Shown one piece after another: positions 66 to 33,246 of a stretch of 33,301 bases of DNA; positions within the stretch are counted from its first letter, which is position 1; each line of letters begins with the position of its first letter. This DNA is from Kipferlia bialata. Lineage: Eukaryota. The DNA lies in assembly GCA_003568945.1 (NCBI GenBank), contig BDIP01000076.1:1-33301 (forward strand), written 5' to 3'. The notes beneath the pieces were generated by a model. The model had not been told where the DNA came from and ran no database searches. It saw only the letters and a program-made list of their open reading frames with translations. Both the position numbers and the translations under genes were made by a program.

Positions 66-1094
66 GACCATAGTCGGATTCAACAAGTGTGAGACAGTGA
101 AGGGCAAGCTGGAGGTCACGGAGAGGGTGTTCGACGTGCAAGGTGGCTGGTTATTCCCTATAGTATATGGTGTATTATGTATGGTGTATTATGTATGGTG
201 TATTATTATGTATTATAGATCTCTCACTGACACTGACCCCTAGAGCACAAGTCGTTTGATGCCCATACTACAGTATATATGGTGTAGTTACATACCATTG
301 TTTACTCTCAGTACTTTTGAAGACCCTTACCCCTCAGAGTTCAAGTCCTTTGATGTGCTGACTGCCACCAGTATAGAGTGTTATACAATATACTTCTCCA
401 TATAATATAGTCACCGTCTCCATATAATATAGTCACAGTCTCTACTATCATATGCCATTAAGGTACTGATCTCAGAGTTCAAGTCCTTCGATGTCCTCAC
501 TGCCACCAGTATACAGTGTTATACTATTCTATATTGTGACAGTATATATCCCCGGTTCCTATACATGTATATGGAAATATGCTGACCCTCAGAGTTCAAG
601 TCCTTCGATGTGCTGACTGCCACCAGTCAGGACTACCCATTCCCACTGGACGATAGAGTGCACTTTGTGCTAAACATCGTGAAGGTATTAATATGTATAT
701 GTATATATATATATATGCATGTATAGTCAGGACTACCCCTTTCCACTGGATGACAGAGTGCACTTTGTACTCAACATTGTGAAGGTATTAATATACATAC
801 ATGATTCTGTATACATCAATATCTACTACTATATCCCTCTCACCCCCAGCACCAGAAGGATGGCCTTGGCGTTTGTATATACATATTCATAAATATGTAT
901 ATATATATATATATCCCTCTATACATATACCCTAAGCCCAGCACCAGAAGGATGGCCTTGGTGCCAGACAGTCCAGACCCATATATATATACATATGTAT
1001 ATATAGAAATATCTCTATACCAAACTAATATCTCTATACATATATATCTAACCCCAGCACCAGAAGGATGGCCTTGGTGCCAGACAGTCCAGAT

Positions 1095-1136
<42 letters not shown>

Positions 1137-3171
1137 CTATACATATACCTAACCATAGCACCAGAAGGATGGCCTTGGTGCCAGACAGTCCAGACCCCTG
1201 GCCATAGGGTGTCCAGCTAGGGCAGACCACGTACGTATATAAGTATATATATGTAAGTATCTGTCTGTCGATATATATATACTCCTACTCGTGGTATTCA
1301 GTGTCTTTGGTATGTCGGCTAGGGCAGACCACGTACGTGTACATCTCTCTCTCTCTCAGTCTTTCTCTATATCTCTCTTTCAATATATATATATATATAT
1401 ATATATATTTATGTATATAACCATACTGACCTTAGGTTGGTGCTCTTGTCCTGTTCTACCAGTATGTGCTCAGCGCGTCTGCACTTGGTGAGTATACTTA
1501 TCCCCTTATCCCCATAGGCTAATACCTCTCCCTCTCTCTGTCTCTCTCACTCCTCTCCTATCCTGTGCCTGGGAGTGCATATGTATTCTACATCTGTATG
1601 CTATGTAATCAGTATATACATTGTGCATTCTCTCTTATATCAGGATCTATCAACCACCTGCACACTGTGCCAGAGAGTGCATATGCAGTATACATTTGGA
1701 GTTGTATATATATATTTATATAGCATTACCATTTACTGACCCCTTAGGATCTATCAACCACCTGCACACTGTGCTAGGCAGTGCCAGACAGTGCATAGGG
1801 GCACCGGTCTATGAGACATCCCACGAGGAGGAGATACAGAGCAGGGGTACGTTGGATATACCCTATATATACACATCTACAGCTAGTATATGTGCCCCCT
1901 CATTCATATATATACGTATGTGTGTATTATTCATATATATACGTATGTGTGTATTATTGTTAAGTGTTTGATATCGCACGAGTGGGAGATACATAGCAGG
2001 GGTACAGTGCTTGCATATATATCACCATGGTTCATTACATACATGATGTGGGCCCTCTCTATATGGGTATCAGTGTTGTGTATGTCCCCCCACCCCAGAC
2101 CTGACTCTTCTGTGGGCCCCTTATTAGTGTATATATGACACACACAAGTATATATACATATATATATCCTCTATATACAAATATATCCTTCCCCCCACCC
2201 CAGACCTGACTCTGCTGTGGGCCCAGCACCCTAGGTCCTACATCGGAGTCATCCAGCCCATCATCATGTCACTCATCAGGGAGAAGTGGCCTGACAAGAT
2301 CGGTATGTTGTATATATATTGTTTGTGTGAATACAATTGTCTCTATATCTCATAATGGTGGTGTTGATCAGGGGGAATTGGCAGACACAGGAAATGCGTC
2401 AATGAGTATGTACTTTCACGATGTTTAGTACACACCTCTAACCACCAGGCACTGTAACCCCCCTTGAAATAGTCATATATACATATATCGGTGTATCCTC
2501 TCAAGTGATTATCCTCCATTGAACCCATATTCATTTCCCCTCACCCCCAGACACTGTGACCCCCCTTGAGATTGCCACGCTTCATATATATATTTGAATA
2601 TGCGTATACATAACCATAAATATATGAATATCACTTATGCTTCTTGTCTACCCATTGGTATGCCGTCTAGTTTCTCACCCCCAGGCACTGTGACCCCCCT
2701 AGAGATTGCCACCCTCCTCTGTGTGCCCCACTACATACTGCATGTGGCTGCCCTACTGATTGTGGCATGTCTGGGGCCATACCCACCAGAAGTGCTCAGT
2801 GACAGGTATGTATATATATGCGAGTATATGTGTTAAACATAGAATCGTTCATATATATATGTAGGATATATATGTAGGATATATGAAGCGTCCGTGTCTG
2901 GGGGCATGCCCACTCGACAGAAGTACTCAGTGATAGGTATATATTCAATTGCATGCATGGTCAAATTGATACATAACATAGTCACTCACGTTAGGTTCAC
3001 CAGAGCCAACCAGAGCCCAACTGCATCACCAGTGGCAGGGAGTGGATCCCCAGGTATGTAGTCGTTGACTCATATATGTATATATACTTATACACACACT
3101 CTCTCTGTCTGTCTTTGGTTATGACTCTATATACTGAGACCCTTTTCCTCTAACCCACAAGGCCTCCCCCA

Positions 3172-3211
<40 letters not shown>

Positions 3212-3774
3212 CATATATATATATAATTATACACTTACCCTCAGGCCGATCCTCTGTGTCCCACAAGGCCTCCCCCTGGAAGCTCAGGAGGAGGGACAGT
3301 GATGAGCTGGGGGACTCACTCCACATCAGCAAGGTAATTACATACTACGTGTGTTATAACACACACACACACACACAAACACATACGTGTGAGTGTGTGT
3401 ACTCGTACTCACCCCAGGCCCTATACCACATCTGTCGGTGCCTCAGACCCCAGCCCATATTCTCAGCCCCTGCCAACTGGACTAGCAGTGACCCAGTGCT
3501 GGAGGTATAGAGTGTATTATACTTGTAGTATTTTATATATAGTGTATACTGACCCCCAGGTTGTGAGTGCCAGGTCCCACACAGCCAATGCCCTCATGGC
3601 ATTCACAGAGAGGCATAACAGGTACAAAGAATAGAAAACATACAGTATGGAGGCGTCGTCTGTACTTTCACCAGCACTGATGCCCAGACGGCAACATCTC
3701 TCTCTATGTATGTTTCTCTCCCTATATATATATTCTGATACCCCAGGTCCCAGTCTGACAACCCCTAACCCACA

Positions 3775-3813
<39 letters not shown>

Positions 3814-5696
3814 ATATGCTTTTGTGCATACTAAAATCCAGGTCCCAGTCTGACAACCCCTACCCCACCTCTGGCCACTCCCACCTGTTGATTGTCAACC
3901 TCACAGCCATCGCCAACATCCACCTGCCACACATGGACGGGGGGGCGGTGCTGGCACCATCCAAGGTACACACACATATATATAGTGTATATGTTTGTAT
4001 ATGGTATGTGATCAGCTGCCACACATGGACGGGGGGGCAGTGCTGGCACCATCTAAGGTATATATACTAAGGATACGCCTCAGTATCAAGTATATTGTTT
4101 TAGGTATCAGTCTCTGACCCCAGGGCGTGTCCCGGATGCCCACCCTCTGGCCCCCCATGGTGTGTGCCAGTGCATACTCCTCAATCAGCCCAAGGTACTA
4201 ATTGGTATATATATTGTGTGTATATATATATATATAGACAGATAAGTATATAGTGAATATATATTTGACATGTCAGTGCATACTCCTCAATCAGCCCAAG
4301 GTACTCATATACTCATAGTACTATATATATAGCATGTGTATGACCTACCTCACCCCCAGGGTAGCCCTCACCCACATCCCATCCCTCCATGCTGTCCGTG
4401 CCCAGCTTCCCTCTCTCCTGGCATCATTCCCTCTCAAGCTGCCGGAGCTGCTACAGACTGCCAGGGAGTCTCTCTGCTCACTCTTCTCAGGTATTGAGTG
4501 TGTCACATACGATTTTACCCTGTCCTTGAAGCACATCTCCCTATGTTCCTACTGACCCCAGCCCTCCTAGCCCGTGCCACTGTGTCCACTGCTGTTGCCA
4601 AGGCATACGAGAGAGAGGGGGCGGCGCAGGTATATAATAATAGACATATGTATACATATATATAATCACTCTTGTGTTTAGATACTGCTGTTGCCAAGGC
4701 ATACGAGAGAGAGGGGGCCGCACAGGTATAGATACGTATATCATAGAGAAGTGTCGTTCATGCATACCCATATATACTCACTTTGTACACTGATCTCCAG
4801 ACCCCTGTGAAGCTGAATGTGACGCCTGCCTCCATCCACGGCAGGGTGAGGCTGATAGTCAAGGACTTAGGGGCTGAGGTATGGTCATGTGTGTATATAT
4901 ACTAGTACTACATATATGGGAGGGTGAGGCTGATAGTCAAGGACCTAGGGGCTGAGGTATGGTCATGTGTGTATATATACTAATACTACATATATGGGAG
5001 GGTGAGGCTGATAGTCAAGGACCTGGGGGCTGAGGTACATACAGTGGTATACTGATACAATATATGTAGTTGTAAGGATATATATAGCTATCACCTGATA
5101 GTCTTCTAACACTCTCAGGACGGCACAGAGATTGACATTCTCACATCCGAGATCATCAAGATTGCAATGTGCCCACCAAGAACAGGTATGTTGGTATATA
5201 TATATATACGTATATATGTGTGTGTGTGTATATATACCATTCTACTCTTCAATACTTCATACACTGTCCCACCCCAGCCAACATGCACTCCCCCTGCATG
5301 GAGACATACACATACAGCCCAGAGGACACACTGGTCAGATTCATCAGGTACAGAATATATATGTTTATATCTAATTGTACATAATAGTAATATCTACGAT
5401 CACTACGCTTCCCCTCACCCCCAGACCCAACGGCACCTACAGCAGTGTCACCCCTGCCTCGTTCAGACTCAGCCCGGTGTTCCAGGTATATAGTATACAG
5501 TCATGCGTACTCTACTGATGTATGCTCTATATATGGTTGTAAGTAACTCTCCTTATAGAGTGAATATATATAGACTCATTCTGACCTAAGGGCCTTGACA
5601 CCCCTGCTGCGCTGTGGGGCAGTGCCGGTCTGGCCGAGGCCTTTGACTGTTCCATACTGGGACACGTCATAGCAGCCATATACGGTATAGATAATC

Positions 5697-5730
<34 letters not shown>

Positions 5731-8700
5731 GATATTGATATGTGTTGAGAATATGGAATGGATAGCTAAACAGCATGGATATGTTTATCCTATAATGTAG
5801 TGTACAGCCTATTTACTGTGTATTTGCCATTTACCCCAGGCATCCGCCAGGCCCCCCCTACTGTCGTACCCCCTGTCCTGCAGGACATGCTCAAGGGCAT
5901 ACAGGTACATTTGTGAATGTAATATTTCATGGTCACTATATTATGTCTGTAATACAACCCACACCCCCCTCACCCCCAGATGTCGCTTGTTACCATCCCC
6001 TCTGCCCCTATAGTGTATATAGTGTCATTCATATAGTACTCTATTTACACCTGTAAGTGTGTGTATGTACCCACCCCCCTTACCACCCCCAGATGTCCCT
6101 TGTTGTCATTATCTCTGCCCCCGTATAGTGTATTCATATATATACCTACATACATATTCTGATATATACCTAATCTCCAGATGTCCCTTGTTGTCATCCC
6201 GTCTGCCCCCACTGAGCAGGAGGTCTATGCCTCGGACTCACCCCTGTGCCCTGTGGTCCACTTCCTGTCTAGGGGGAAGGTACGTATGTACATATACACG
6301 CATTAATATATATAGTTCCCTCTATATGTCTCACCCCCAGGGCCCCTCCGGCCTTGTGCGTGTGACTGAGGTCTGGGTCAGACTGTCCCTGTCCACAACG
6401 GTGAGTCAGGGGTATATATATATATATGTATATATATATGTATGATGTCATCCTATATATTCTATGTATCATCTCACCCACAGGACTCCATGCTGCTTGT
6501 CGAGGTGTTGTCTGCCTCTACATGTAATATATACTCTTTGTATCTATATCTTGTATATATGAAAGATGTATAGTGATCTCACTCCCCAGGACTCCATGCT
6601 GCTAGTGGAGGTGTGCGGTGTGGATGTCCCCACCAGGTCCATATTGAAGGACTCCTTCTGGCATGTGGACACATCCAACACATCATCTTTAGACCTGGCA
6701 CATAGGACACTGACACAGCTCTTTACAGGTTAGTGTATAGCCTAACAACATAGTATGTATATGGTATATAGAGTTATACATCCAACACATCGTCACTCGA
6801 CCTGGCACACAGGACACTGACACAGTTGTTCACAGGTACTGTTGTATACATTTGGATAGTGTATATACACAATTTGATTAACTAAATGTATATATATACA
6901 TCAAACACATCATCCCTGGACCTGGCACACAGGACACTCACGCAGCTCTTTACAGGTTTGTATGTATTCTATGTATATCTGATATTTGTGTTCAGTTCTG
7001 GACTTGCTATTAGCCTTATTGTTCCCATCCCAGGCGCTGTGCTGCGTGTGCTCCTGGACGCCAAGGCCCTGACCCACAGACAGTCGGTGGCACTCAAGCT
7101 GGTGGCATTCAGGTACAGCAATACTGATATGTATATATAGTATATATGTCTGTATTTGTATTTGTTTTAATACTATAGTTATCGGCGGCACTCAAGCTGG
7201 TGGCATTGTAGTAATCAGGTATATCTAATAGATACTGATACTGATACTGAATTTTATTGTGGGGTATGTAGTATAGTTTTTATAAACATTCCAGTGTATT
7301 ATGTTACTGTGGCACTCAAGCTAGTGGCATTCAGGTACCATAATATTATTGCATATTGAATGTTTTCGGGGTATATATATGACAGAGCTCATATCAGGAT
7401 GCGCCTGACCAGTTATGGCACCTATATATGTATATATCTTCATATATATATATATATGGATATATATATATATACTCATGGATATGTAGCCTAATCCTCA
7501 GAATGCGCATGACCAGTTCATGACCAGTTGATACACCTGTCTATCTATATCCATATATAGTGGATATATATATATTCATGTATATGTGTATATATACAGA
7601 ACTCATCCTCAGGATGCGCATGACCAGTTCCGGCACCTACCAGGGCAACCCTCGGTATGTGGAGGAGAGAGAGAGAGAGAGGGCTAAGGAGAGACACCTG
7701 GCAAGGGAGGGTGGAGGCGATATGGGTGCAGGAGTACCACAGTCTACAGTGTCACCCCGTACGGCGTACGGCAAGAGCAGCATGACGTACAGAGAGAGAG
7801 AGAGGAGGGAGAGAAAGGAGAGAGAGGAGAATGAGGATGACCACATGTTCCCCTTGGAGCTGCTAGATGAGCACAATGTGTTCATATCGCCCACCAGCAT
7901 AGAGCACGTGTCCAGTGTCAGGTGTGGTGACTATATATACAATGTGTGTATTATTCTCTATATATATCGGGCCTATTCTCACCCCCTAGGCACACTGGGC
8001 AGTGCCTCCCCCCCAGGTGTTACACCTCGTCCCTCCCACCCCTCAGTGGTCAGTACTTCTCAGTGCTGCCATCCCTATTCCCAGAGGTATAGAATACTAT
8101 AGCGACTGATGTCTATACAATATATACAACATATGTAAATACGTATGTATCTCTCAGCCTCTTGGCCGTTGTCATCCCCCATTTGTCCTTCCAGCCAGTC
8201 ATACCATATATACAGATATATGTATATATGTATACGTGTGTGATAAATATATATACACTGTGAGTCTCACCCCCAGGCCGTTGTGATCCCCCACGTATCC
8301 TTCCAGCCAGTCATACCCCCATGCAGGGCTAGAGGGAGAGAGAGCAGCCTGCCCAGTCTCGAGGGAGCATACAACGGAGAGACACAGTCGGAGCTGGTGC
8401 TAGACCTGGGTACGTATCTACGTACACACTCACTCTCTCTCTTGAAAGTGATGGTGAGTATTTTGGTCTCTTGCTTCCCCTTTCTCACCCTCCCAGCCTA
8501 TGTCCCCCCTCTGTTCCGCGAGACCCTGCTCTCCTTCCTACTGACATACCTCCCCCCCTGGGTCTCTGCATTCAAGAGGGGCATGTTGGCCCAGATAGAG
8601 AGACTGGCACCAGCTATAGAGCACGGGTCACCGGCAGGTTTGAGAATATGTTATATATACATTTACTTATTCTACTCTAACCCCCAACCATGGCCCTGTA

Positions 8701-9308
8701 TGTCAGACTGCTGCGTGTGACCTTATATATCTCTATATATATATATCTATACCTATATGAATACTCGTATGCTATACATACCACCGTACTAACACCCAGC
8801 CATGGCCCTGTATGCCAGACTGCTGCGTGTGACCATATATATATATTGATATGTACAGATATAGAAATATACGTGCAATTATTTACACACACACCACTAG
8901 TCTAACTCAGCCATGGCCCTGTATGCCCGACTGCTGCGTGTCACCTTCAACCAGATCCACAGGGTCATCATCAGTGGCAGAGAGGCAGAGAGAGACGGGA
9001 AGAGGGGTATGTCTAACTCACAAGAATGACCCGTCTACTCTACTGCTATATATTCTGTGTACATATATCTCACCCCAGAGTCCAAGGACCGTGACCCCAT
9101 CTGCGTGGCACCTGATGACAGTACCCTGGTGCTATGCATCATCAACGTGTCAGCAGCAGGTATACTTACGTGTGTAATACAGATATGTCAGAGAACACGA
9201 TATTACATTGGATATTTAGTATCGTTCACGTGTCAGCAGCAGGGTGGTGAGCAGTTGGAGGGTATATGTAGGGTACATACACTTCAAACACCTCTTTCAC
9301 CCACATAT

Positions 9309-9341
<33 letters not shown>

Positions 9342-12300
9342 GTGTGTGCGTTGCTCTCCCGTACCCCCAGGCACCATCTCCCTCCGGACCCCCACCCCCC
9401 TTGTTGGGGCATCCACCTTCCAGGAGTGTGCGAGGTATACAAACACTATATATTGTTTATACTCTACTGTGATTTCAGGAGTGTGCTAGGTATATGCAAT
9501 CGCCATTAGTATATACTCTAGTACATAGAGAGTATCATTCACTGGTGTCACCTATATATATACTATTGACCCCCAGGGCCGTGCTGTCCTATTGTCTGAC
9601 TTGACATATAGTATAGTATAGTATATCTACACACAATAGTATTCACTAAATATTAGTTTGCATTGCATTGACCCCCAGGGCCGTGCTGTCCTCTGCCCTT
9701 GTGTCTGAGCTGGCAGGGTCACACCAGATGGACGCATTCTGCCGGTATGAGTTATGTATCATAATGTATCGTCCCTATATAATTATATGCACTTCTCTCC
9801 AACTTCAGTCTCTCCATGTACCCTGTGCGAGATGCCATCCTGGCCACGTGCCATGCTCTGAGGTATCGATATGTGTATGTACTACGCTATTATATATGTA
9901 TTCTACATATTTTCACTATGTATGTATCAATACAATGTGTATGCCATCCTGGCCACATGCCATGCGCTGAGGTTCATATAGAAGAATATTTAGATATACT
10001 TATGTATATTTACTTCCGATAATTGAATGTAACCCCAGGCTGTCTGAGAAGATCAGACTGGCAGCATTGGCCAATGTGGCAGCAGCCATGCACACAGTCA
10101 GTGCCCTAGGTTAGTATAGTGCATATGAATGTGTATGCTAACCCAATTATGTACTGTATGCTATGTACTATATGTATGTATATATATCAATGTGGCAGCT
10201 GCCATGCACACCGTCAGTGCACCTGGTGAGTGTAGTGTATATGTACATATATTAGTTCTCTCTCTCTGTCTCTCTATATATATCACCCCAGGCTCCATCA
10301 ACCTGTCTGTCTCTCCCTCTGTCCTCAAGGACAGACTGGCCATCAAGAGACTCATAGAGTGTGCAAACGGACTCATTGGAACACCAGGTATGTCTATACT
10401 TTATCCTTCTTCTTGTCCTAAACTGACTATGTGATATATATGTATGAGACTGATTGAGTGTGCAAATGGGCTGATTGGGACACCAGGTAGAGATTTCAAT
10501 AATTAACAGCAAAATAGGTCAAATGATGATTATGGTCAGTGATCCCTTCTAACCCTTCTAGGCACTCTCAGGCGCTCCAGGGAGAGAGAGAACGCCAGCA
10601 GCAAGGGCAGCCACGAGTATGATACGCTCTACCCACTGCTCCTAGCCAGGTACACGCATACACAATTGTGTATATACATCAATTGCGTTACATATGTCAT
10701 TGTATATCACCCCAGGAGTGTCTCCATCCCGTTATGATACATAGTGCGTGTATATGCGTCATTCTCTAATTTCCCAGGAGTGTGACCCTTCTGTTCTCCA
10801 CCATGGCAGGGGCCGTGCTCAGAGACTGGGACCAAGTCGGTACGGAAGAGTACATATATACACACTGATGGTTATATTCCCATAGGTACGCATCAATTCA
10901 GTATCCAAAGTTTGTGAGTGAATATATGTTGGGTCCCGGAGAGTGTATCTCCCTCACCCCAGACCCCCGTGAGGACATGGACATGCTCAGTGACAGTGAG
11001 AGTGACCCAGAGCCAACCCCAAGACAGGTACACACATAGTGGATATTATTTGTATTCATATGGTCTTCTCTTGTGGTGTGTATTACTCTTTCTCACCCCA
11101 GGCCCGTCTGCTTGGCCGCATACCCTCTGGGGCATCACCATCCTCAGGTACTGTAGTATATATACATGTGTGTGTGTATGTGTCTCATATCATATATATA
11201 CATCCACATCCTCGTAGTTTCTGGTTATTGTGCGAACATACACATTCCTTCCTTCCTACATATTCCTTCATACTGTCTATGTGAGTATACTAGTGTATCC
11301 CCTCACCCCCCAGGTGCGGCTGAGGGAGATGACTCCCAGAGCGGGTCCTCTAGAAGCCGGAGCTCGTCAGACGATAGGGAGTTTGGCTGGGAGACTGGTG
11401 GAGAGGCCGAGAGTGAGACGGAGACTGACACTGACAGTGAGAGCAGTGGGGAGATGGCCGCCAGGCAGAGACAGCACGATAAGGAGATGCACAGAGGGGT
11501 GTTTGTGATATTCGAGGACCAGGCTGCGCTACAGAGCAGGGTACCACCCACTCTCTCACTTGATATAGAGAGGTCCGTGGTGCTCCCTGCATTCACACTG
11601 AACGGCACACCGACTGTGCCTGCCGTGCACCTGCACATGTCATACACCAACAGGAGGTATGGAAGATATGTATTTACAGGGATATATATAGAGAGAGAGA
11701 GAGTCAGAGATATGTATTTATAGGGATATATATATAGAGAGATAGAGTCAGTACACCTGCACATGTCATACACCAACAGGAGGTATGGGGTTGTATGCAC
11801 ACGTACATTTTTACATATATCCTATTCTATTCCACACACCCACTGCAATCCTATAACCCCCAGACTGCTGTGTCCCCGGCCTGGTGCATCTGTTGGCACA
11901 GGGGTGGCATCACCCAGACGCAGAAACAGGTACATACGTAATGTCTACTCTCAATTAGTCCTTATACATACAATGTATTCTCCTCTCACCCCTTAGGCTT
12001 GGCAACATGTCTGGGTCTGATGAGTCATTCTCTTCCTCTTAGTCATACATTGTGTATATACACATGAATCCCCCTTTCTTAACCATAGGCTTGGCAACAT
12101 GTCAGGTTCCGATGATGACAGGCCTGCCAGGGGCACTCTCAGCAGATCCAACTCTCTCCTGATGGCAGCCGAGAAGACCAATATGCCGGCACAGAAGTAT
12201 AAGGTATATATGTATAGATATGGACAGATTATACATATATATATATATATATATATGGAGGCGAAACATGCCGGCACAGAAGTATAAGGTAAATAGAAAC

Positions 12301-14698
12301 ACATCGATATACTTGTGTATACAATGTTGCCAGTATTGTGTTAGGTGTCATTGTGTACTGCGTATTCCTCACCCCAGTGCATGATTGTCAAGGGAGACAG
12401 CGGAGACGTGCCAGCATCCCTGGTGATACAGGGTATGTGGCATATTATGAGTGTATATGCACTGCATTTCATGATGTGATTGTACATATGTATGAATATA
12501 GCTAGTGGTTGCTCACCACCAGTGCCCGATGTTGGCACCCTAGAGCACCTTGTGACGCAGAGCCCCATCCTGCTGCCACTCAGACTGCAGCTGCTGAGGT
12601 ATATACACTAATATATATAGTCTATTATATATACCTACACTTGTATTTACGACTGTCGCTGAGACTCCACTCTCATCCCTAGGCAGTGGCTGTACCAGTG
12701 CCAGTCCGGCCTGTCCAACATGTGCTCAAGGTGAGGTCTCTATCTCTCTCTCTCTCTCAATATATTGATTTGGGTATAGGATCCTATTCTCACTCTCAGG
12801 CGTGTGTGTTGCTACACCATCCCAGGCACCCTCTGCTGCACTGTAGACACTGTACCTCAATACCTGCTGCAGTGCATGTCCCTGGGGAGGGAGGCATCGG
12901 CAGTCATAGGTACACACTCAATGTACTAATTAGTATATATGTGTATATATATAGTAAGTATACTATACAGTACCTGCTGCAGTGCATGTCCCTGGGCAGA
13001 GAGGCATCAGCAGTGATAGGTACACACTCAATGTACTTATTAGTATATGTATATATATATATATTTACTAACTCAATGTACTGATTAGTATATTTATATA
13101 TATATACAGTACCTGCTGCAGTGCATGTCCCTGGGCAGAGAGGCATCCGCTGTGATAGGTGGGGAATATTCATTCACAATTTCAGTTTCTTTGTATATTC
13201 TACGTTATACTAATGGTCACCATAGGCGGTGGATGTGAATTAGACTACTATGAGTCTCTGAGTGTACATAATATTCCCTAGTGCTATCTTACCCCCAGAC
13301 AAGCTCTTTGACCGGTCCACCTCCCTGGCCAGACAGGTGGGTGTCTAGTGCTCTCGCTTCATATCTCTAAACTATTTCTCTATACTATTAATTATTATAC
13401 TACTCTATTACCATCCCTGTCAACACAGTGTATTCTCATGTATATAGGCATCCCCCCTGGCTATTAGGATTATGGAACTGTCTTCGATGTTGTTTTCGTG
13501 TAATCTCTTGCTCTCTGTGTATAATATACATGTCGTATACTAACCCTAGGTCTGCGTCTTTGACTCTGTTCTGTTTGTGGGCGGTGCCACACACAGAGAG
13601 CTCCCGGAGTTTGTGAGGTACATTCATCGACACATGTATTCATACGCCTGTGTGTTCATATTGATCCATACTGATACTCATATTGATGCGCTGCAGTACC
13701 ATATCCATCTCTTCTCCTTTCTGATAGTGACACTATTCTTTTCTTTACTGGCATACTATGGCACCATGACTGACACTGACCCCAGACATGTGCAGGGAGT
13801 GCCTGTGATAGAGGTGCCCACCCCAAGTGAGGATCAGAGTGAGGAAGAGAGGGACAGGCAGCGTGAGGCCCTAGACGAGGCTGCCCTCTCCAGTCACATT
13901 CCCATGTCCATCATACCTGCCCCAAGGACAGAGGATAACCTGCTATTCGACGGCAGTCCCCCTGTCGACAAGAGGGAGATGGAGAGGGAGAGAGAGAGGG
14001 AGATGCAGGCGCAGCTGAGTGAGGCCTTGAAGGAGCCCCGGATCTCTAGATCTAATACAGAGAGTGGGGAGAGTGGGGAGACTGACGAGGGAGAGAGTGA
14101 GGGGGAGAGTGACAGTGACCTGCTGCCAGCTGGTGAGTCCACTCTGCTATCAGGAGTACAGGGCATGTCAGGTATAGCCGGTGCCATACCGTCCTTCTCA
14201 ACCCCCGGTACACACCTGACAGGGGGTAGTGGGGACTCGGTATCCTCCTCTGCACCTGGGGACAGGCCCTCTCTCTCCCTATCTCGCGGTACAGCCAAGA
14301 CACCGTGGAGAGGGACAATGGCTGTGATATCACTGGACCCACCAGTGTGGGAGGTACGATGAATACACACATGTATATATCACTGTAGATAATACAGTTA
14401 AATAGTATCTACTCACCCCAGCATCTAATAGGTGTCTATAAGGACAGAGTTTTCGAGGCCCTTAACCGGTATGGAGAGGACGTGAGACCGGGGGAGAGGT
14501 CCATTGTAACTCCACTGCTGAGGCTGGTACCAGAGCTAGAGAAGGAGACAGGTGGGGACGTTCATATCATCATTGTCTTGTTAGTATATATTCTTACTCT
14601 CAGAGCGCGCTATCGTGATGGCCTGTCTGCTAGCCTGGAAGCTCATCTCCATAGCACATGGGCCCATGTCGCTTGAGGAGGCGTTAGCCATGGAGTAG
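66..14698 (+). CDS. Large multi-exon uncharacterised protein, 5' end outside the window (dozens of short exons)
   Basis: Hand splicing at GT-AG sites keeps an open frame. Examples: 66-142 TIVGFNKCETVKGKLEVTERVFDVQ, 593-684 EFKSFDVLTATSQDYPFPLDDRVHFVLNIVK, 1159-1230 HQKDGLGARQSRPLAIGCPARADH, then later DSMLLVEVCGVDVPTRSILKDSFWHVD and GSINLSVSPSVLKDRLAIKRLIECANGLIGTP, long exon 13786-14353, 14422-14551, and terminal 14604-14698 (ERAIVMACLLAWKLISIAHGPMSLEEALAME*, TAG). Exons are GC-rich against AT-rich introns. No family recognised. Not every internal junction was checked, so it could be more than one gene. Confidence 0.8.
244..13158 (+). repeat. Intronic partial duplicates ('echoes') of adjacent exon ends in the large + strand gene
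   Basis: 5'-end echoes include 244-263, 338-372, 476-510 (exon 593) and 850-870, 942-980, 1058-1097 (exon 1159). 3'-end echoes include 725-784, 4921-4956, 4999-5034, 6778-6835, 6898-6955, 10447-10486, 12968-13019 and 13107-13158. Confidence 0.95.
4843..5037 (+). repeat. 78-bp tandem repeat (about 2.5 copies) spanning an exon 3' end, the donor site and the intron head
   Basis: AGGGTGAGGCTGATAGTCAAGGAC occurs at 4843, 4921 and 4999. The intron part is almost identical between the first two units. Confidence 0.92.
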
Positions 14699-14911
14699 AG
14701 AGGCTGATGTACTTTGCTACAAGTAGTGTACCAGTAGTATATGTACTTCAAGTATGCTGATTGCTGTTGCCCCTTATCGTTGTTTGTGTCTATTGTCCAG
14801 TGATTCTGGACAGGTGTTCCAGCACCAATGTGGTGTGTTGTAGAGGGTAGAGAGTATGGAGAGAGTATATTGTGTTCGATTAATAGACGTGTGATGATTA
14901 CTCTATTGTCT

Positions 14912-17888
14912 TCAGATTGCCTTGTGTGTGACATGCTTAGACCCCGCCACTGGGCTGTTGAGAGGGCGGTAGGGGCTGACTGAGGCTCTCTCTCCCTCCA
15001 CCGCTCTACACAGTATGTCCAGAGCTGACACCTCTCTATCCTCCCCACTCTCATGCCCAAGGAGGGACGTATCAGTGTCCTTCTCCCCCTCGAATACCTC
15101 TCTCTCTGCACTTGGAGATGGCTGGAACCTAGACAGGAAGAGGCGCTCTCTCTCTCGCACGTCCTCCTGTGCTAGGGCCTGCCTCTCTCTCTCCCTCTCA
15201 AGCAGCCTTGCCTTCTCTGCCTCTCTCTCTCTAGCGAGCTCTGCCCGTCTCTCTCTCCTTGCCATCTTCTGTGCCTCTCTCTTAGACATTGGCTGCAGGG
15301 TGGACACGACATCTGGGGACACAGGCTGCGAGGGGGGTAGCCGCTGGTGCTCCCTGGCACTGGCCTTCATGGCAATTCTCTCTCTCTCTCTGTTAGTGAG
15401 CCTTGGTGTGGGTCTGTCCCTAGGGGGTGGGGGAGGGAGCCTGCCACCGACACTTCTGCTGCGGAGAGGCCTCTGGGACACCAGCATCTGTGGCTCATGC
15501 TTGACCCGATACTGAGGGGTGGAACCATCTCTATCTCTTGATGGTGCTCTTGATGATGCCCTTCTGGAGGTGCTTGATGTGACACTGGCGGATGATGCTC
15601 TGCTGTACAGTCTGGTAGGGTACTCTGTCTTTGTCTCGGGGGTCCACTCTTCTTCCTCCTCCTTGGCTCTGAAGCGAGGGGACCGCCGGGACTGGCGACG
15701 CTTGGTCACTCGCTTTGGGGCAGGCTTGCCATCTGGCAGTCAGACTGGAAGAGAGTGATACCCATCAATGCAACAAAGATGTTCCAAAACTTCACATGTG
15801 ACATAGTCTACCCGGCAAAGATTGTTGTAGGGTAGCAGAGAGAAGTCTGAGACTACTCAGGGACTATATAGTTGCTGTAGTTTGGTACATGTACCTGGAC
15901 TGGTGTGGACTGACAGAGAAGGAGTGGATCTGCGGGTAGAACTGGCTCTGGAGGATGGTCTGGAAGCTGCCTTTTCCTGGCATTGAGTAACAGCGCCCGT
16001 CGAGTAAACAGACATCGCAGAACGTAGCTGAGGTTCACAATAGATAATAGAGACACACAGACTTCCATTGACCATACATGATATATCATCTGTTATAAAA
16101 GAGTCCTGCGTAACTGATGATACCGGTAAGTTACTTACCTCTTCTGTCAAGGGAGGGATCCTGGTGGGGTTGTACTCCTGAGGGTGGGTTACATTGAAAT
16201 GGGAATGATTGTGAGTCTAAAGAATGAATAGTGACCTGCAGTTGCAAAGACTATGAGAGACACTCCTGCTCAATATCATTGATACATATATAGTACTGTA
16301 TTCTTCACCTCAAAACTCCCCCTGGGGTGCTGGTGCTTCATGTGCTGCACAGCGCCACTTCTTACAGAGAACACCCTGAGGTATGAGAGAGTATAGCAGA
16401 TATATACCCATACTTGGCAAGTATGATACTTGCAAGAAAGAATGCGTAGCACACAGGAGCTTGTTAGAGAGTAGAGTACCCGATGCGGTTTCTCAACGGT
16501 GAAATACTATAATGTGTACCTTCCACATCCTTCCATCAGACACTGCCACCTAATGCCCCTGTGCACACCTTGGATGTGGGTCTTGAGGGCACCTGGGGTG
16601 AGAAAAGTGTGGATGATATGTATCTGGTGACATCGATGGTCTCTCTGAATCTGCAATGTGTGACCCCCATCTTATAGTCTAGTTGCTAAACGTGTCGCCA
16701 ATCAGTTGAGTAAGAATACTACCATTGTATATAATTGAGTGCATAGGATATAGACAGTGGCAAGAGATACCTCTCTGTGTGAACCTCTTGTCACACTCTG
16801 GACAGGGATAGGGCCTCTCATTGGTGTGGGTGTGGATGTGGTCCTTGAGATTGGCTGGTGGTTAGGAATGTCCCGAGAAGGAGAGTGGTGACGTTCAAAT
16901 AGTGATACTATACAAGATTCGTACTTCGTCTCTTGAACCCCTTGCCGCAGTATGGGCATAGGTGATCCTTGCCCTTGTGGGTCTGGGACAGGTGGCGGTG
17001 CAGGGACACTGGGAGTAGGAATATCCAGACAGTAGCATTGCTGCATTGTTCAGCTGACCAAGAAGGCAATATCGATAGAGAACATGTGAAGTGACTGCAA
17101 TACTAGTACATCCAGTGTATAGTGGTCTCTCGATACCTTTGTTCCTGAAGGTCTTCCCACACTTTGAACATGCATTGGCATCTGGTTGTAAGTACTCTCG
17201 AGTATATGTGTATGCTCTGTCTTCTCGTATACTTGAATATAACTGTAACAATTGAGTCAAGGGCCGTATTCACACTATTTGGACTTCTGTAAATTTCACT
17301 ACCAATGGATAGAAGAAGTATCCCACCTTGAGGCTCTGAGTCCGAGTCAGGCTCTGAGGCGTAGACAATCTCTCCACGGGTGTCGATTTGAGTCGCCATC
17401 ACTGCTGTTATATCAGAAGTGCATTCATACATAGTCACTGAGGTGTTATAAGAATATCGTTACCTGGCTGTTCCTTGTCTGAGTGCTCTAGGTCAGACGA
17501 TGACTCAGAGGCTACCCCACTGCCAGATGGAGGGACTGTATCCTCTGATGTAAGATGGCATGCCCCTGAGCAGAGAAGTTACAACATGTAACATGTTCTC
17601 AACATGTATTATGTGTCGGTGCTTGGATGTAGCGAACTATATACATAACTCATACCCATTGTGTCGTGACAAGTGAGACTAGAAAAAGAAATTGATATAG
17701 AGAGAGAAACACTGTAACACACCCGATGGGGGCAGTGCAGCCACTCTTGAAGCTCTACCTGCCGGTACACCTGTCCCAGTGAGTGGTGCCTTCTCTGAGG
17801 ACATCTCTTGTTTTACAGCAGTCTCTTCTTTCACTTCCACATCCCCCTCCGTTCTGCCCCTACATCCCCTACGAGGCCTATTCTTCAT
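14912..17888 (-). CDS. C2H2 zinc-finger protein (4 fingers), paralog 1, probably with a long Arg/Glu/Ser-rich C-terminal exon
   Basis: Exons 17888-17723, 17565-17464, 17437-17327, 17181-17137, 17008-16925, 16854-16771, 16592-16520, 16375-16309 and 16177-16139 splice to [108 protein letters not shown]. Small exons 16027-16014, 15976-15895 and 15863-15812 can join in phase to 15732-14912 ([21 protein letters not shown]...). An alternative unspliced end stops at 15857, so the 3' structure is less certain. Confidence 0.85.
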
Positions 17889-25435: not shown

Positions 25436-28041
25436 TTAGTCTCTTGTGGCAAGAGAGAAGTCCTCGTAGAGATCCATGCCGCTGGGGTGTAAGAGCAGCA
25501 GTATATATATAACCACAGAGATACGTATAGAATATATTATATAGAATGAATATTAATTAAGAGCATAATTAATTAAGAGCAGCAGAATGACCACAATACC
25601 AGTCATAATAATACATATATATGAATAATACAATATATGATATACATTCTATGATTGATACACTTATATGAATATTCAGAAGGGAGAAAGAGACTGAGCC
25701 AGTAGAAGGAAAGAGATGTCATACTTGGTGAGTGCCAGCAGGAGTGCGTCTCTGTCCTCCACTGCCAGCAGGATGTTCTTCCTGGGGGGTGAGGTATACA
25801 CTCGCTCCCACACAGACTTACTGCATATATATGTGTACATAGGATACACACGGGGGGGGTAAGGTGGGTATATATGTAAATATTAATATATACTAAAAGA
25901 TACTGAGAGAGAGGGAGAGACAACGGATGTTCTTCTTGGGGGGTAAGGCATAAATACTCTCTCTCACATACATACACATATATATGTATAGAAAAAGATG
26001 CATACCATATCCCCTCCTTTATCGTATTACACCGAGTATATATGTCAATTCATATACATAAACATATGTACACAAATTCACAATATACCTAGTCTCCTCC
26101 TCGTATATAAGACCCATACACGGTCTCCTATCTGTATATATATATCTGTATATATACATATATATATCCTATACCTAGTCTCCTCCTCGTCGTAAAACTT
26201 GATCCAGACCTCGAGGGGCATGTCGCCAGCCCTGGGGATGAGGGACCATCACTGATAACACTCCACAACTATATATCCACAACTCAAAGTGCATTCTCCC
26301 TTCCAAGAAATGAATACTATATAATACTGATAACATACATCTAACCTGACTGTGTCCAGCTCCGAGTAGTGCCTCTCTGTCTTGATCTTGGTCCCATCCA
26401 GGTTCATCAGGGAGTCCTAACAGATAAGAACAAGTATATATAACTGATACTAGTATATATAACTGATACTAGTATATATAACCATATATATATATATATA
26501 TATATTACCATCCAGGTCATCAGGGAGTCCTACAGAGTGAGTAACAACAAATGAAAACAATAGAATGAATAATGATGACAATATGGCCTGGATATCCCGG
26601 TATATACAAAAGAATAACCTTGTTGAGCTTGAAAACCCTGGACCAGGCTACGTATATGTCTATACATAGACTCTCTGAATACTTAACAAAATGTAGAATA
26701 TGTATGTATCTCTTACCTTGCTGAGCTTGAACACCCTGGACTGGGCCTTGCCCTTCCTGTTGATCTGGGGTGAGGGAGAGAGGGAGAGAGAGAGACCATA
26801 TAACAAACAATAAGAAAGACCAAGAGATATACTTGCATAGTATCCCATATATACTAATATATGCATCCCTCCCCATCTGGGTGACCCTCTGTCAATATCA
26901 TAGTATATCATAGTATATACAAGTATATTAGTATACAATATACCTTTGTGACCTCGTATGCAGAGGGGGCCTCAGTGTTCCACCAGCTGAAGCAGATCTC
27001 AAACAGCTCTCCTAGAAGGTTAGAAACATGGATAACTGTGTATCATATATATATGTATATATGTATATATTCAAGGTATGGCAGATCTCGGACAGCTCTC
27101 CTGGAGGGTGAGATGCATACTAAGTCGTGTATATCGAGAGTCTATGTCCCAATATTCAAAACGCACACATTATATATATACACATACGCCTACCTAGGAT
27201 CTCGTCCCTCTGTCTCACCGATGCACACTCGTAGATACGGGGAGCCCTAACATGAGTGAACATACAATGAGCGACATGGGATGGAAGATGTATAGGCCAC
27301 TATGTGGATTGTATACTGGTATTCACACCCTCACCTGTCGCCCTTGTCTGCTGGGAAGTATCCCACTTCCATATATGCCCATATATTATAGTTCATTAAC
27401 ATATATACATACATATATATATATATATGGAAAATATATATCTCACCTGTCGCCCTTGTCTGCTGGGAAGTATCCAACCCTGGTCTCGACCTGGGGGTGA
27501 GAAGGTGGGGTCTTAAACAGTGAATATTCCACTAATCCTATATCTACCTTAGCGTCATTGTCGATGGCAATGATGAGCACCGGCTGGTGGGTACCATACA
27601 TAATAATTCATGTATATATAGAATATATATATACACATTTATTCACTATACCTTAGCGTCATTGTCGAATGCAATGATGAGCACCGGCTGGTGTGGGGGG
27701 GCTGTGATCTCGGAGATCTCGGAGATCATCATCTCGTTCTGACGGTGAGGACAGAGGTGAAGTGTGCGTCCATATTGGTATACATACGCCCATGTATATA
27801 CGTGTATATATGTTACCCTGCACACACCTTGATGATGGCTGGGTAGTGTAATGACTGATCCCTCTACATGTACATACACACACATACAAATGATATGAAC
27901 CATGCCACTTGTACTAACCTTGATGATGGCTGGGTATGTAATGACTCATGGCTATATACATACGCACATAATAAATATATGTATACATGCTGCATTATAC
28001 CCACCTTGATGATTGCAGGGTATGCAATGACTGATGGGCAT

Positions 28042-28074
<33 letters not shown>

Positions 28075-29583
28075 CATATATATACATATATATATATATG
28101 CTAATGCACCCACCTTGATGATGGCTGGGTATGCAATGACTGATGGGCATATACATATACATATATATATATATACATACATATTAATATATATATATAT
28201 ATATATATACATGCTGCATTATACCCACCTTGATGATGGCTGGGTATGTGAGGGGCAGGGAGGCCACGGGGAGCTTGTCTGGAGGGTGAGGGGATGGCCC
28301 ATACTTATACATGTCAACGTCATATTGGATACTACTACGAACCTGGGTTGGGTGTGGGACCAACAGAGGGGTCTACTCCATAATACTAATACCATACAGT
28401 ACATATATGTATATATATACATATCTGTAAAGTACCTGGGTTGGGTGTGGGCTTCCTCTCGATGTTGAGAAGGGAGGAGGGGGTGAACTTGATCACTCTG
28501 GGGGTGAGAGGCGCACATGTAGAGTAAGGGAGAAATAGAGAAAGCGCTACCAATGTCTCTTGTATGCTACAGCACAAGCCGTACCTCTCCTGCCTCTTGT
28601 TCTTCCTGTTGACCTTGGTCACGGCATACTCCTTGGGCCTGGGGTCAGACACAGACATAATATTAGACTAAGGCTATATATATGTATAATATGTATATGT
28701 ATATGTGTGAATGTATATGGCTTGGTCACGGCATACTCCTTGGCATGGGGTGAGGCAGACACACAATAAGGCATATTCAAAGAACTCACATCAGTAACAC
28801 ATGTTCCGTTAATACTAATATCATTGCTGTAATATAGGCATGGATTCATGTGTAAATATACCTAGGGTTGACCCTGTCTGTGTATGGCTCGGGTCCAATG
28901 ACAGGGGTGGCACCCAGGGTGTACAGGAGCTCGTCGAAGGAGGTCCTGGGATCATAAGCATATGGTTACACTTACAAATACATACACATATATGAGGAGG
29001 AGAGAGGCCATGGTGTACAGGAGCTCATCGAAGGAGGTCCTGGGGTAAGTATAGTATAAATGTATACAGAAATGTAATAACATAAACACACAAGTGCCCA
29101 AAAATTACAGAGAGGTAAGGGTGTACAGGAGCTCGTCGAAGGAGGTCATGGGGTGAGAGGTATATACATAGAGTCACAGTCCCAAATACATGTATAAGTA
29201 CATAGTAACACATGGTGTACATTAACTTATCGAAGGAAGGTCCTGCGGTGAGGGGGATATATGTTAATATTCAGTAGCATATACACACATACCTGAATGC
29301 CACAAAGTCTGTGCAGATGCCCTGGCCAGAGTTGGACTCGATGTCCTGCATCACGCCTGGGGGTGGGGGTGAATATTAATACACATGCACACAAATATAC
29401 AATTAGAGGGGTAGGGAGGGAGTTCAGGTAATCTCATGTGCACACACATCGTATTGGTATATACATACCTGCCATGACGAAGTCCCTGTAGCTGCTGAGT
29501 GCCCTGTGTGCAATGGCCAGTTCACGCAGGGTGTACTCGGTCATCTGGATGGTGTCTGGGGGTCAGAGGTATGTATGGATATG

Positions 29584-29619
<36 letters not shown>

Positions 29620-32221
29620 AGGGTGTACTCGGTCATCTGGATGGTGTCTAGAGGTTAGATGCATATATGAACACTGGAACAGTGGATATATGATAGTTGT
29701 ATAGATGATATCGTACCCAGTGGGCAGAGTCCCTTGGACACCCCCTTCCATACCATCTCCATACCAATCATTGTATAGTGATACTGTATCAACACACCTA
29801 GTGGGCAGAGTCCCTTGGACACCCCCTTCCACAGCTTTTCAATACATACTATATACATATACTATATATTGTATCTCTATCGTACCGAGTGGGCAGAGTC
29901 CCTTGGACACCCCCTTCCAGTCCTGACCGGTGGGGTCAGTGATGACCTTGCGCAGGTAGGCCTCACACCTATATGTGAGTAAAACATATAGTAATATATA
30001 ATAATACAATATATAATGTAATATATACATATGCAAAGAGAGAGAGAGAGGAGATGACCTTGCGCAGGTAGGCCTCACACCTAGGGGTAAGACACAATGC
30101 AAGTACTATTGCCATTCAATATAATTATACAACTAAATCATTACCTAGGCATGTACTCATCCACCACTGTGTTCATGGGGATCATGAACTGCTCGGAGTC
30201 ACCAAACCGTACACCGTTGGAGATGGACTGGATATAAGAGGGAACAGAGAAAGAAGGATTCAAATAGCAAATCATTGGTTATAAAGGTAGTAGCGCATAG
30301 AATATACCTGAATGACTTTGGTGATGAGGATGAGGTTGCACATGAGATACAAACATACCCTTGTGTATAAATATGTTCATATGTGTATTATGTGCATATA
30401 TACGCATATGTATACTAGTATAGCATACCTGAATGACTTTGGTGATGAAAAAAAATGAAATACCAATATGTGTAAATGAATGTGTGTCCACTTGTATATA
30501 GTACATACCTGAATGACTTTGGTGATGAGGATGAGGTTGCGTCTGGCCCTCTGAGAAGGGGTCTTGCCGGCCTGGGGTGGGGTATATATAGGAGATGATA
30601 AGATGAGACGATACACTATATATATGTGTTTATCTGATATATGATATTGAAGACAATACAACACGCAGTATACGTACCACCGACACCCCGTAGAACTCGG
30701 GCACGGCAATGCCAGGGTTGAGGAACCTGATGGTGAGGAGACACACAAATGAATATACCCATATTTATACATATGAAAACTTATACATATACCGCTATGT
30801 ATTTATAGTAAAATGTACCTGAGGAAGATGAGGTTTCCGACCAGGGGCAGGATGTGGGCACCAAAGCCGTAGCGGGGGGCAAGCCTATGATAAGAGGTGT
30901 GTGTGTGAGAGAGAGACGAACATATGTGAACGGAATACCCGGGGTGAGAGAGCCCTATATTCTCTCTCATTATCCATACCGCTTCCCACCTACATATTGT
31001 ACACTAGTATATATCTAATACCTAGCCACTGTGGCGCAGAGTGCCCTGAGCTCGAGGGGCATGAGGTCGAGGGTCTGGGGTGAGGGTATGCAGATACATA
31101 CACACACACACACATATATATATATTAATATAAATATATCTATCTATCTATATATATATATACCCCTACCTCGTCAGACATGATGTGGTCCATGAAGAGA
31201 CACAGTACCGACAATGCATCAAACACACATACATCAATATATAACATCTATATATATCAATATACTCTCTCATATAACAACCTATATATACCCTTCTTCC
31301 CATACCTCGTCAGACATGATGTGGTCCATGAAGAGACGCACAAGGTCAGACAGCTTGGCAATGTTGGACTGGGGGTGAGTAATGGGATATATATACATAT
31401 GTATATACCTAAGATATCTATAAATAGACTCTTCTATAAATAGATTACCCACCTCGAGAGTCTTGGGCCTCTTCTCGGGGTCGATCTCGTACACCTGGGG
31501 GTCAGTATGCATGTAGCATATAAATTCAAGTGAATAAAGGAAAACAATTCAAATGTACACAGGGTTTTATGCAATCAGTGTTAACGAGGACAGTTACTCT
31601 CTAAACATGAGAAATAAACCCATCCCATACCTCCATCCTCTTAGCCATCACCCCCTCCACCAGCTGTGCCAGCGTGTTGTGCAGGTAGGTGCGGGAGGTG
31701 TTGAGCACAAAGTTACCAGTGGCCCTGGTGTTAGAAGGGTATCCCTACTATTCAATTATGCATTCTATGGGTGCGCCAATTTGACACCTGGAGATTGTAC
31801 GTGAATATATGTGGAAATATAGAAGGATGGGAGAGCTACCTGTTGGGTCAGTCTGCTCCTCTCACTCTCACGTCTATATACATACATACACAATTACACA
31901 TACATACATAGATATATATGAATATGTATGTCTATGTACCCGTTGGGCAGTCTGCCCCTCTCACACTATCATATACATATATACACTTATACACATTCAT
32001 ATATAAATATATCCACACCTGTTGGGCAGTCTGCTCCTCTCACGCATGAAGGTGGTCCAGTCGGCCTGGGGGGTGAGATATATTATATACATATATATAT
32101 ATATGTGCAACAGAGCATCCACTATACCTTTGCGAACTCGAACTCTGCCTCGATCAGCTTCTCCAGCACAAAACACCTGTAGAATACTTATATATATACA
32201 TCTATATATACTGTGTGTATA

Positions 32222-32258
<37 letters not shown>

Positions 32259-32759
32259 GTACCATAAACTTCAGTAAATGTTACCTTTGCAAACTCAGAC
32301 TCTGCCTCGATCAGCTTCTCCAGCACAAAGTACCTCTTTGATATCTCTTTTATATATACATCTATATATACTATGTGTATATGCATATGACATCATGAGT
32401 GTTTGTGTGTATCCTACCTTTGCGAACTCGAACTCTGCCTCGATCAGCTTCTCCAACACAAACAGCTGGGTGGATGTGTCATGGCAGGCCTTGAGGATGA
32501 ACTGGGCCATGCCACTGGGGGTAAGAATCAGACAAATATTAAGGTATGCCATAAATATTATGGGTATATATATATATGCCTTGAGGATGAACTGGGCCGT
32601 GCCGCTGGGGTTAGATAGGTATATATATGTATAGAGAGAGAGAGTGTGTGTGTGTGTGAGAGAGAGAGTGAGATAGAGAGAGTATCGGGGCAGGCCTTGA
32701 GGATGAACTGGGCCATGCCGCTGGGAGTCAGATATACACACATATATATAAATACTAAC

Positions 32760-32791
<32 letters not shown>

Positions 32792-33246
32792 GTAAATATG
32801 GCATGGTTTGCTATAAATAATACGGGTATATGCCTTGAGGATGAACTAGGTCATGCCACTCTGGGTTAGATACAAGGATCATAATGCTATACAGTAGTAT
32901 ATATATCCACTATACATATCAGAGGTTAGATAGTGACTGTATTCATAGTACCTGCACTGACTGGGCCTGACTGTGTTTGAGATGATCTTGAGCACTGGTA
33001 TATATGTATATATACCTATATGTATATATATACTTGTGAATATATATATACTAGTACCTGCACTGACTGGGCCTGACTGTGTTTGAGATGATACACATAT
33101 ATAAATTATATATAGTGCATATATGGTGAATATATAGTGAATACATAGTGAATATATACACACTAATACCTGCACTGACTGGGCCTGACTGTGTTTGAGA
33201 TGATCTTGAGCACAAAGGGGTTGGTGCGCACAAAGGCAATCAGAAG
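25436..33246 (-). CDS. RasGAP-domain protein with two C-terminal PH-like repeats; 5' end outside the window
   Basis: Exons 33246-33170, 32514-32418, 32065-32019, 31724-31631, 31494-31453, 31368-31306, 31074-31022, 30884-30819, 30726-30678, 30571-30509, 30227-30145, 29968-29886, 29555-29469, 29356-29293, 28945-28862, 28638-28585, 28497-28436, 28278-28229, 27738-27652, 27490-27447, 27246-27194, 27011-26944, 26764-26717, 26416-26346, 26231-26175, 25781-25725 and 25481-25436 splice in frame. RasGAP hallmarks: TTFMRE (arginine finger, FR-like), YEIDP, MPLELRALC, VGNLIFLRFLNPGIAVPEFYG (FLR motif), and RRNLILITKVIQSISNGVRFG..EQFMIPMN. Confidence 0.92.
25925..33092 (-). repeat. Intronic partial duplicates ('echoes') of adjacent exon ends in the RasGAP gene
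   Basis: Approximate spans: 33059-33092, 32952-32995, 32688-32720, 32285-32328, 32128-32173, 30429-30448, 30308-30339, 29798-29831, 29718-29750, 29011-29039, 29119-29147, four YPAIIK echoes at 27828-28133, 27548-27590 and 27335-27364. Confidence 0.95.

Follow-up and report, generated by a model that had tools for sequence, protein, structure and literature searches.

Why should introns carry partial copies of the exons next to them, spelling the same peptide in different codons? The question is raised by a 33,301-nt stretch of Kipferlia bialata DNA (contig BDIP01000076.1; "the window"), in which exon fragments that we call echoes lie in the intron before (5' echoes) or after (3' echoes) the exon that they resemble. 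Kipferlia is a free-living protist, and Giardia is an intron-poor relative. All echo counts given here come from the two genes A and B of the window (Table 1), whose introns are of the GT-AG type with a branch-point motif adjoining the acceptor. The model of gene A was built by hand, stays open in frame up to one terminal stop, and yields a product identical at 1764/1764 residues to NCBI protein P0002 (Kipferlia bialata hypothetical protein); the upstream part of the gene extends beyond the window start. Gene A has no Pfam family, protein searches for a paralogue or relative returned P0002 itself or nothing, and none of 46 pattern matches to possible relatives in metagenome contigs was confirmed. 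The exons of gene B are predicted from open frame throughout, and a single weak RasGAP match (E 0.025) falls below the cut-off. Contig support covers bases 1-2840, and introns farther on rest on the gene models.

Table 1. Features of the window (positions are those of the window; a score is that of the splice site).
Feature	Position	Strand	Remarks
Gene A	66..14700	+	52 exons, 1764 aa; 42 echoes across 28/51 introns
Gene A exon 1 in window	66..142	+	spliced contig of run X2
Decayed outermost 5' echo of exon 593-684	244..261	+	own acceptor (score 12.1)
5' echo of exon 593-684	338..372	+	own acceptor; 1 silent change; in DNA contig 39-681
5' echo of exon 593-684	476..510	+	own acceptor; 2 silent changes
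Gene A exon 2, expressed	593..684	+	spliced contig, protein match
Real donor and TA-rich spacer	685..724	+	40 nt, shortest of 72 spacers
3' echo of exon 593-684	725..784	+	7 silent changes; spliced out
Unused donor copy	785..794	+	same as 685-694 over 10 nt
Outermost 5' echo of exon 1159-1230	850..869	+	
5' echo of exon 1159-1230	942..980	+	
5' echo of exon 1159-1230	1058..1096	+	
Gene A exon 3, expressed	1159..1230	+	spliced contig, protein match
3' echo of exon 6590-6728	6778..6835	+	6 silent codons, 0 changing
Second 3' echo of exon 6590-6728	6898..6955	+	6 silent codons
3' echo of exon 10292-10387	10446..10486	+	6 silent codons, 0 changing
Two stacked 3' echoes of exon 12800-12909	12968-13019, 13107-13158	+	4 and 5 silent codons
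C2H2 zinc-finger gene tandem pair	15900-18200, 20700-22980	-	Pfam zf-H2C2_2, E 1e-11
Gene B	25690..33246	-	26 exons by open frame; 31 echoes across 16/25 introns

The locus came to attention through the second exon of gene A in the window, whose last 60 nt (625-684) had been described in the first-pass annotation as returning downstream with silent differences only. This description is borne out: 7 of the 60 nt differ (at 639, 642, 651, 654, 669, 672 and 678), all at silent third positions, so that both copies encode the same peptide, and an identical 10-nt donor follows each. The two upstream echoes proposed for the same exon are also present with none but silent changes, and we find a third and more decayed one that had been overlooked, with 1 amino-acid change and 2 silent ones. 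The exon itself is real, as in a spliced contig from run X2 (a run classed as RNA by guess) position 142 is followed directly by 593 and 684 by 1159, so that the 3' echo is skipped; this contig covers gene A exons 1-7 with GT-AG joints and exon letters only. Seven silent differences out of seven would arise by chance with a probability of 2e-5 to 2e-4 in a neutral copy and of 6e-4 to 4e-3 in a dead copy beside a constrained exon. Since the case was chosen out of 73 echoes, the wider test described below weighs more than this probability.

A first possibility is that the assembly has set alternative haplotypes in tandem. The published genome is a short-read assembly (PMC5874029), and the DNA contigs of run X1, which may be the source of the window DNA, leave the TA-rich link 682-727 unbridged. 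One of these separately assembled contigs spans 39-681 without differences (depth 420) and contains exon 1, the three 5' echoes and exon 2 in a row, which directly supports the tandem layout of the 5' echoes. A second one spans 728-876, again without differences (depth 367), and carries the 3' echo together with the 5' echo of the next exon, supporting the placement of the former through this link. Moreover, stretches common to these copies are all shorter than 31 nt, and the spliced contig removes the echoes as parts of GT-AG introns, all of which makes an artefact extremely unlikely. A contig for a second haplotype was found neither on exon 2 nor in run X2, but contigs drop variants and the filter leaves holes, so this says nothing on ploidy. 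The main text of the genome paper (PMC5874029) mentions neither duplication, alleles, ploidy nor heterozygosity.

To see how common echoes are, every exon was aligned to both neighbouring introns with a cut-off score of at least 14. This screen recovers 73 echoes in 44/76 introns, compared to 9 of 5342 non-adjacent exon-intron pairs that reach score 14 in the control (three exons >150 nt excluded), and the case of exon 593-684 is nothing special as 1 of the 73 echoes in the window. Nearly all of them (72/73) start or end at the facing splice site. They are 14-60 nt long with an exon part of about 30 nt, the largest amounts to 0.66 of its exon, and whole-exon copies are absent (0/73); coding exons are intact in both genes. 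Mutually exclusive tandem exons are rejected as an explanation on the same grounds, given that the largest copy is 0.66 of an exon.

The echoes are arranged in units of 78-157 nt (median 105.5, n=72), each made up of half an exon and the greater part of an intron. An exon has 1-4 copies on a given echoed side, and the spacers measure at least 40 nt and 75 nt on average, close to the median of 88.5 nt for echo-free introns. Echoes set intron length in genes A and B, which follows about 102 nt plus 101 nt per echo (r=0.92, n=76). A tandem-repeat scan detects 5 arrays with a period of 78-116 nt at echo stacks. The flanks of echo units match over a median of 4 nt and over at least 20 nt in 5/72 units. 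Sibling echoes begin at the same exon position and thus share junctions, which are rich in TA, CT and GT; dinucleotide runs make up 18-19% of intron DNA. In 5' stacks the outer echoes are more damaged (8 versus 2 changes in 8 stacks), which is suggestive of a decay gradient, but such a gradient is absent from 3' stacks (0 versus 2 changes in 10 stacks), and changes show no gradient along the echo body.

For exon 593-684, it had further been proposed that 5' and 3' echoes meet at one AGT triplet and together tile the whole exon. The ends of the 5' echoes and the start of the 3' echo do coincide there, at exon positions 33-35, and both halves have diverged silently, as would be expected had a single event cut an older exon in two at AGT and placed a fresh whole copy in the gap. 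The significance of this meeting point did not hold up: of the 9 exons echoed on both sides only 1 tiles within 3 nt where 0.29 would be expected by chance (P=0.27), and the presence of echoes on one side of an exon is not significantly associated with their presence on the other (odds ratio 1.5, P=0.59). The overlap at AGT is therefore best read as chance, and a split exon is extremely unlikely to be the source of the echoes. Joining the 5' echo to the 3' echo at AGT by splicing would lose one base, and the A|GT after the 5' echo lacks the exonic G that precedes 75/76 modelled donors.

The appropriate null for the divergence of echoes is a dead copy beside a constrained exon, for which 40-46% of differing codons are expected to be silent. 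In gene A, 61 distinct codons differ silently versus 13 that change the amino acid (P<=1e-10), the result persists without exon 593-684 (51 versus 13, P=3e-8), and silent differences outnumber changing ones in 16/18 exons, so that the silent-only divergence first described for a single exon holds generally in this gene. Gene B is different, with 8 silent versus 10 changing distinct codons (8/18, P=0.3-0.56) and a silent excess in only 1/7 exons; the silent share differs between the genes (Fisher P=0.002). End-trimming affects such counts, with 105 silent and 48 changing untrimmed single-base differences compared to 76 and 23 trimmed codons, and two weaker echoes add 4 silent and 1 changing. 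Base-substitution bias was considered as a cause in gene A and is rejected by a spectrum-matched null that keeps the observed base changes (23/82 silent expected, 64 seen). Third-base changes run in both directions, with 22 from GC to AT and 17 from AT to GC. Codon bias is stronger in gene B (GC3 0.80, ENC 35.6) than in gene A (GC3 0.68, ENC 43.0). As a separate observation, 18/31 gene B echoes are identical to their exon and differ from it in their splice-site flanks.

Sibling echoes also differ from each other, with 23 silent and 4 changing private differences in gene A and 5 and 7 in gene B (three-way codons being counted twice). Four codon sites exist in three synonymous versions, and exon 6590-6728 and its echoes use three different codons at one Ser and at one Leu. 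At 0-fold sites, divergence amounts to 0.018 in either gene (15/848 in gene A, 10/558 in gene B), while at 4-fold sites it is 0.195 in gene A (49/251) and 0.043 in gene B (5/116); this combination is expected if decay time is shared and earlier divergence is gene-specific. The ratio of changing to silent divergence in gene A is 0.066. With 2 stops among 23 changing codons and 3 gaps in echoes, the amino-acid-changing differences look like decay. In addition, 8 of the 23 changing codons have two base changes compared to about 3 expected from independent hits, possibly due to error-prone synthesis.

One account of these data would be ordinary stuttering on the same chromosome followed by neutral decay of the echoes, with a silent excess that reflects exon constraint alone. 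This fits gene B as well as the 5/72 units with long matching flanks, but it is rejected in gene A at the P value given above and can explain neither why differences between sibling echoes are silent (23/27) nor how a 95% identical body comes to lie beside flanks of 45% identity. We therefore regard it as very improbable. Copying from the same chromosome and subsequent decay cannot yield the pattern of gene A, and copying from a diverged homologue can.

The splice sites of the echoes are informative in this respect. GT is retained in 40/41 3' echoes and AG in 26/31 5' echoes, and identity drops from 95% inside echoes to 0.42-0.47 in their flanks (background about 0.3). Echo acceptors differ from the real ones at 6.0/12 positions and yet score 9.5 versus 9.2 (0.8 if changes were random), and echo donors are slightly weaker than real ones at 5.1 versus 5.7 (3.1 if random), although this random-change control counts one-base register shifts as substitutions and hence understates the null. 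For comparison, a pair of zinc-finger paralogues in the window (Table 1) has a 4-fold divergence of 0.20 and flank identities of 0.47 at donors and 0.57 at acceptors across six exon pairs, with different but consensus-type splice sites. The echo profile matches that of these functional paralogues, so that an echo with its splice site resembles a piece of a working copy that evolved separately.

How the cell passes over these sites is suggested by the spliced contig. It bypasses ten echo acceptors in introns 1-6, several of which outscore the real site, and none of these introns yields a new spliced exon or intron from its echoes. Downstream of 5'-echo acceptors, strong donors are rarer than expected (2 against 8.4, P=0.01), and only 1/26 5' echoes that keep AG is followed by one. 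From the skipped strong acceptors and the depleted donors we infer that splicing proceeds by exon definition and ignores half-exons, which accordingly persist, with whole-exon copies being purged. In-frame mini-exons were considered and dropped: the first GT close to where a 5' echo ends is in frame in 9/12 cases, the effect is lost once donors are scored, and 1/26 is strong. Two further observations concern the splice sites themselves. In one pair (2085-2119 and 2190-2224), a skipped echo acceptor equals the real one over 14 nt and is followed by 21 nt of exon start. Modelled donors read G|GT in 75/76 introns and AG|GT in 63, an unusually strict requirement for an exonic G.

On balance we lean, if only just, towards the view that echoes are half-exon pieces of diverged working alleles that were stacked by out-of-register repair or recombination between homologues; these donor alleles we infer from the letters of the echoes themselves. 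A break within an exon would be extended on the homologue, past the exon end and into the different intron of the latter, and the extended end would be unable to re-anneal in the dissimilar intron and be end-joined instead. The product would be a full exon plus the half-exon and splice site of the other allele, and further copies that share one junction could arise later when echo and exon exchange unequally. On this view, the silent differences and the splice sites, unlike yet strong, would go back to a period in which both versions coded for protein, and the few amino-acid changes, stops and indels would have been acquired during a short time as echo. Under exon definition, splicing would pass over such half-exons and so let them stay, and copies of a whole exon would be weeded out. 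NHEJ is absent from metamonads and Rad51A from fornicates (PMC8516963), and K. bialata is listed in the supplement of that study with Pol theta, Spo11 and five Rad52 genes. In a fungus, silent diversity has been reported to reach 0.20 (PMC4576712).

Several results speak against the allele reading. Gene B fits plain neutral decay with flanks as diverged (0.46) as in gene A, and its few silent differences beside diverged flanks would need strong codon constraint or very fast rewriting of introns. Contrary to what the allele reading predicts, silent divergence does not follow the likeness of the flanks (rho -0.07, P=0.58), and the narrow unit size, including the lower limit of the spacer, is not accounted for. 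Finally, the spread of silent counts among echoes is fitted by a saturating coalescent (P=0.12-0.27), which counts in favour of the allele reading, but it rejects an unsaturated one (P=0.01).

The last point would suit donors that were not segregating alleles of one population and instead homeologues of a past hybrid or polyploid, or lost paralogues, as the spread of silent counts lies below what an unsaturated coalescent predicts. The same signature of two functional copies would be expected from such donors, and the echo profile is that of a real paralogue pair. However, three codon versions at single sites imply at least three sources, one fixed divergence is rejected (P=0.02), and protein searches show no gene A paralogue, so that we consider homeologues or paralogues improbable.

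As the main rival reading, echoes could be old and selected in place, being swapped into use by collapse of the DNA, gene conversion or a jump at the RNA level. The low ratio of changing to silent divergence in gene A, the strong splice motifs and the near-saturated flanks resemble long-lived functional duplicates, and the five Rad52 genes in the supplementary list count in favour of this idea. On the other hand, the lone spliced contig has exon letters only in introns 1-6 (though contigs drop minor forms), stops and gaps occur among the echoes, and equal 0-fold divergence in both genes is not predicted. It can also be reasoned that conversion frequent enough for selection to act would wipe out the silent differences as well. 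We thus judge selection in place to be unlikely, and decidedly unlikely in its fuller form, where half-exon echoes would be a maintained back-up layer under protein and splice-site selection, with seamless recombination of DNA or RNA routinely swapping them into the exon, in a lineage without NHEJ and Rad51A.

Among known phenomena, the nearest to these echoes is avian "exon stuttering" on dot chromosomes (bioRxiv 10.1101/2025.09.16.676548). According to the main text of that paper, introns there contain partial copies of the exon next to them, and coding exons stay intact. The window echoes likewise show adjacency above control, border anchoring and intact exons. Border anchoring exceeds 90% in birds, compared to the 72/73 of Kipferlia, and the median exon part there measures 36 bp, compared to about 30 in Kipferlia. 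The main text proposes repair or inaccurate meiotic strand invasion as the cause. Density is very different, with 190/5,572 dot-chromosome introns (3.4%) in birds versus 58% of introns in the two Kipferlia genes. The avian arrays lie in GC-rich vertebrate DNA, comprise 1-44 copies and reach up to 23 kb, whereas Kipferlia is a unicellular fornicate in which the units measure about 105 nt, occur in few copies per side, and show diverged unrepeated flanks and silent-biased divergence. The main text of the avian paper never uses the word "synonymous", and the supplements could bear on silent sites. What is new relative to the known is thus density, lineage and silent-biased divergence.

Other systems share some aspects only. 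Tandem duplications after the Rogers model of intron gain (potato RdRp, PMC4974935) are short, span exon-intron borders and carry splice signals. In contrast, echoes only lengthen introns by about 101 nt each and are spliced out, and intron gain is rejected for them because no new intron or exon arises and they are skipped in introns 1-6. Gao and Lynch (2009) reportedly dealt with internal gene duplication and with tandem duplication as a route to intron gain.

In worms, end-joining of failed strand-annealing repair leads to tandem duplications that involve Pol theta, an enzyme also listed for K. bialata, and that resemble echoes as direct repeats with filler at the junction (PMC8654963). These worm duplications come from mutants, span 100 bp to 10 kb (median 1 kb) and consist of identical copies, unlike the diverged copies of about 105 nt in wild-type Kipferlia. 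Duplicated exons on the Drosophila Y, for which microhomology repair has been invoked, are also extra and mostly unexpressed copies near a functional gene, but they are whole exons on a non-recombining chromosome (PMC8794474), and the echoes of the window are half-exons only. The literature searched contains no report of exon echoes in Kipferlia.

The echoes extend exon stuttering, so far known from birds, to a unicellular eukaryote at a density about 15-fold higher (in two genes), and the comparison of silent with changing differences adds a test of its mechanism. The skipping of strong acceptors points to exon-definition splicing in a relative of the intron-poor Giardia. The genome paper gives an intron total of 124,912 for K. 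bialata (PMC5874029, main text). If the allele reading is true, one genome would keep stacked former alleles at tens of thousands of introns, and allelic diversity, codon selection and cryptic sex or inter-homologue recombination would become measurable in a fornicate from a single assembly.

Elsewhere in the window, 18 silent and 11 changing codons separate the members of the six exon pairs of the zinc-finger genes. The introns of these genes have a dinucleotide repeat content of 0.09 compared to 0.18 in genes A and B, and a local-repeat scan lists only one weak candidate echo in them. Outside genes A and B, a 75-nt tandem repeat at 18626-18845 comprises 2.9 copies with 80% match.
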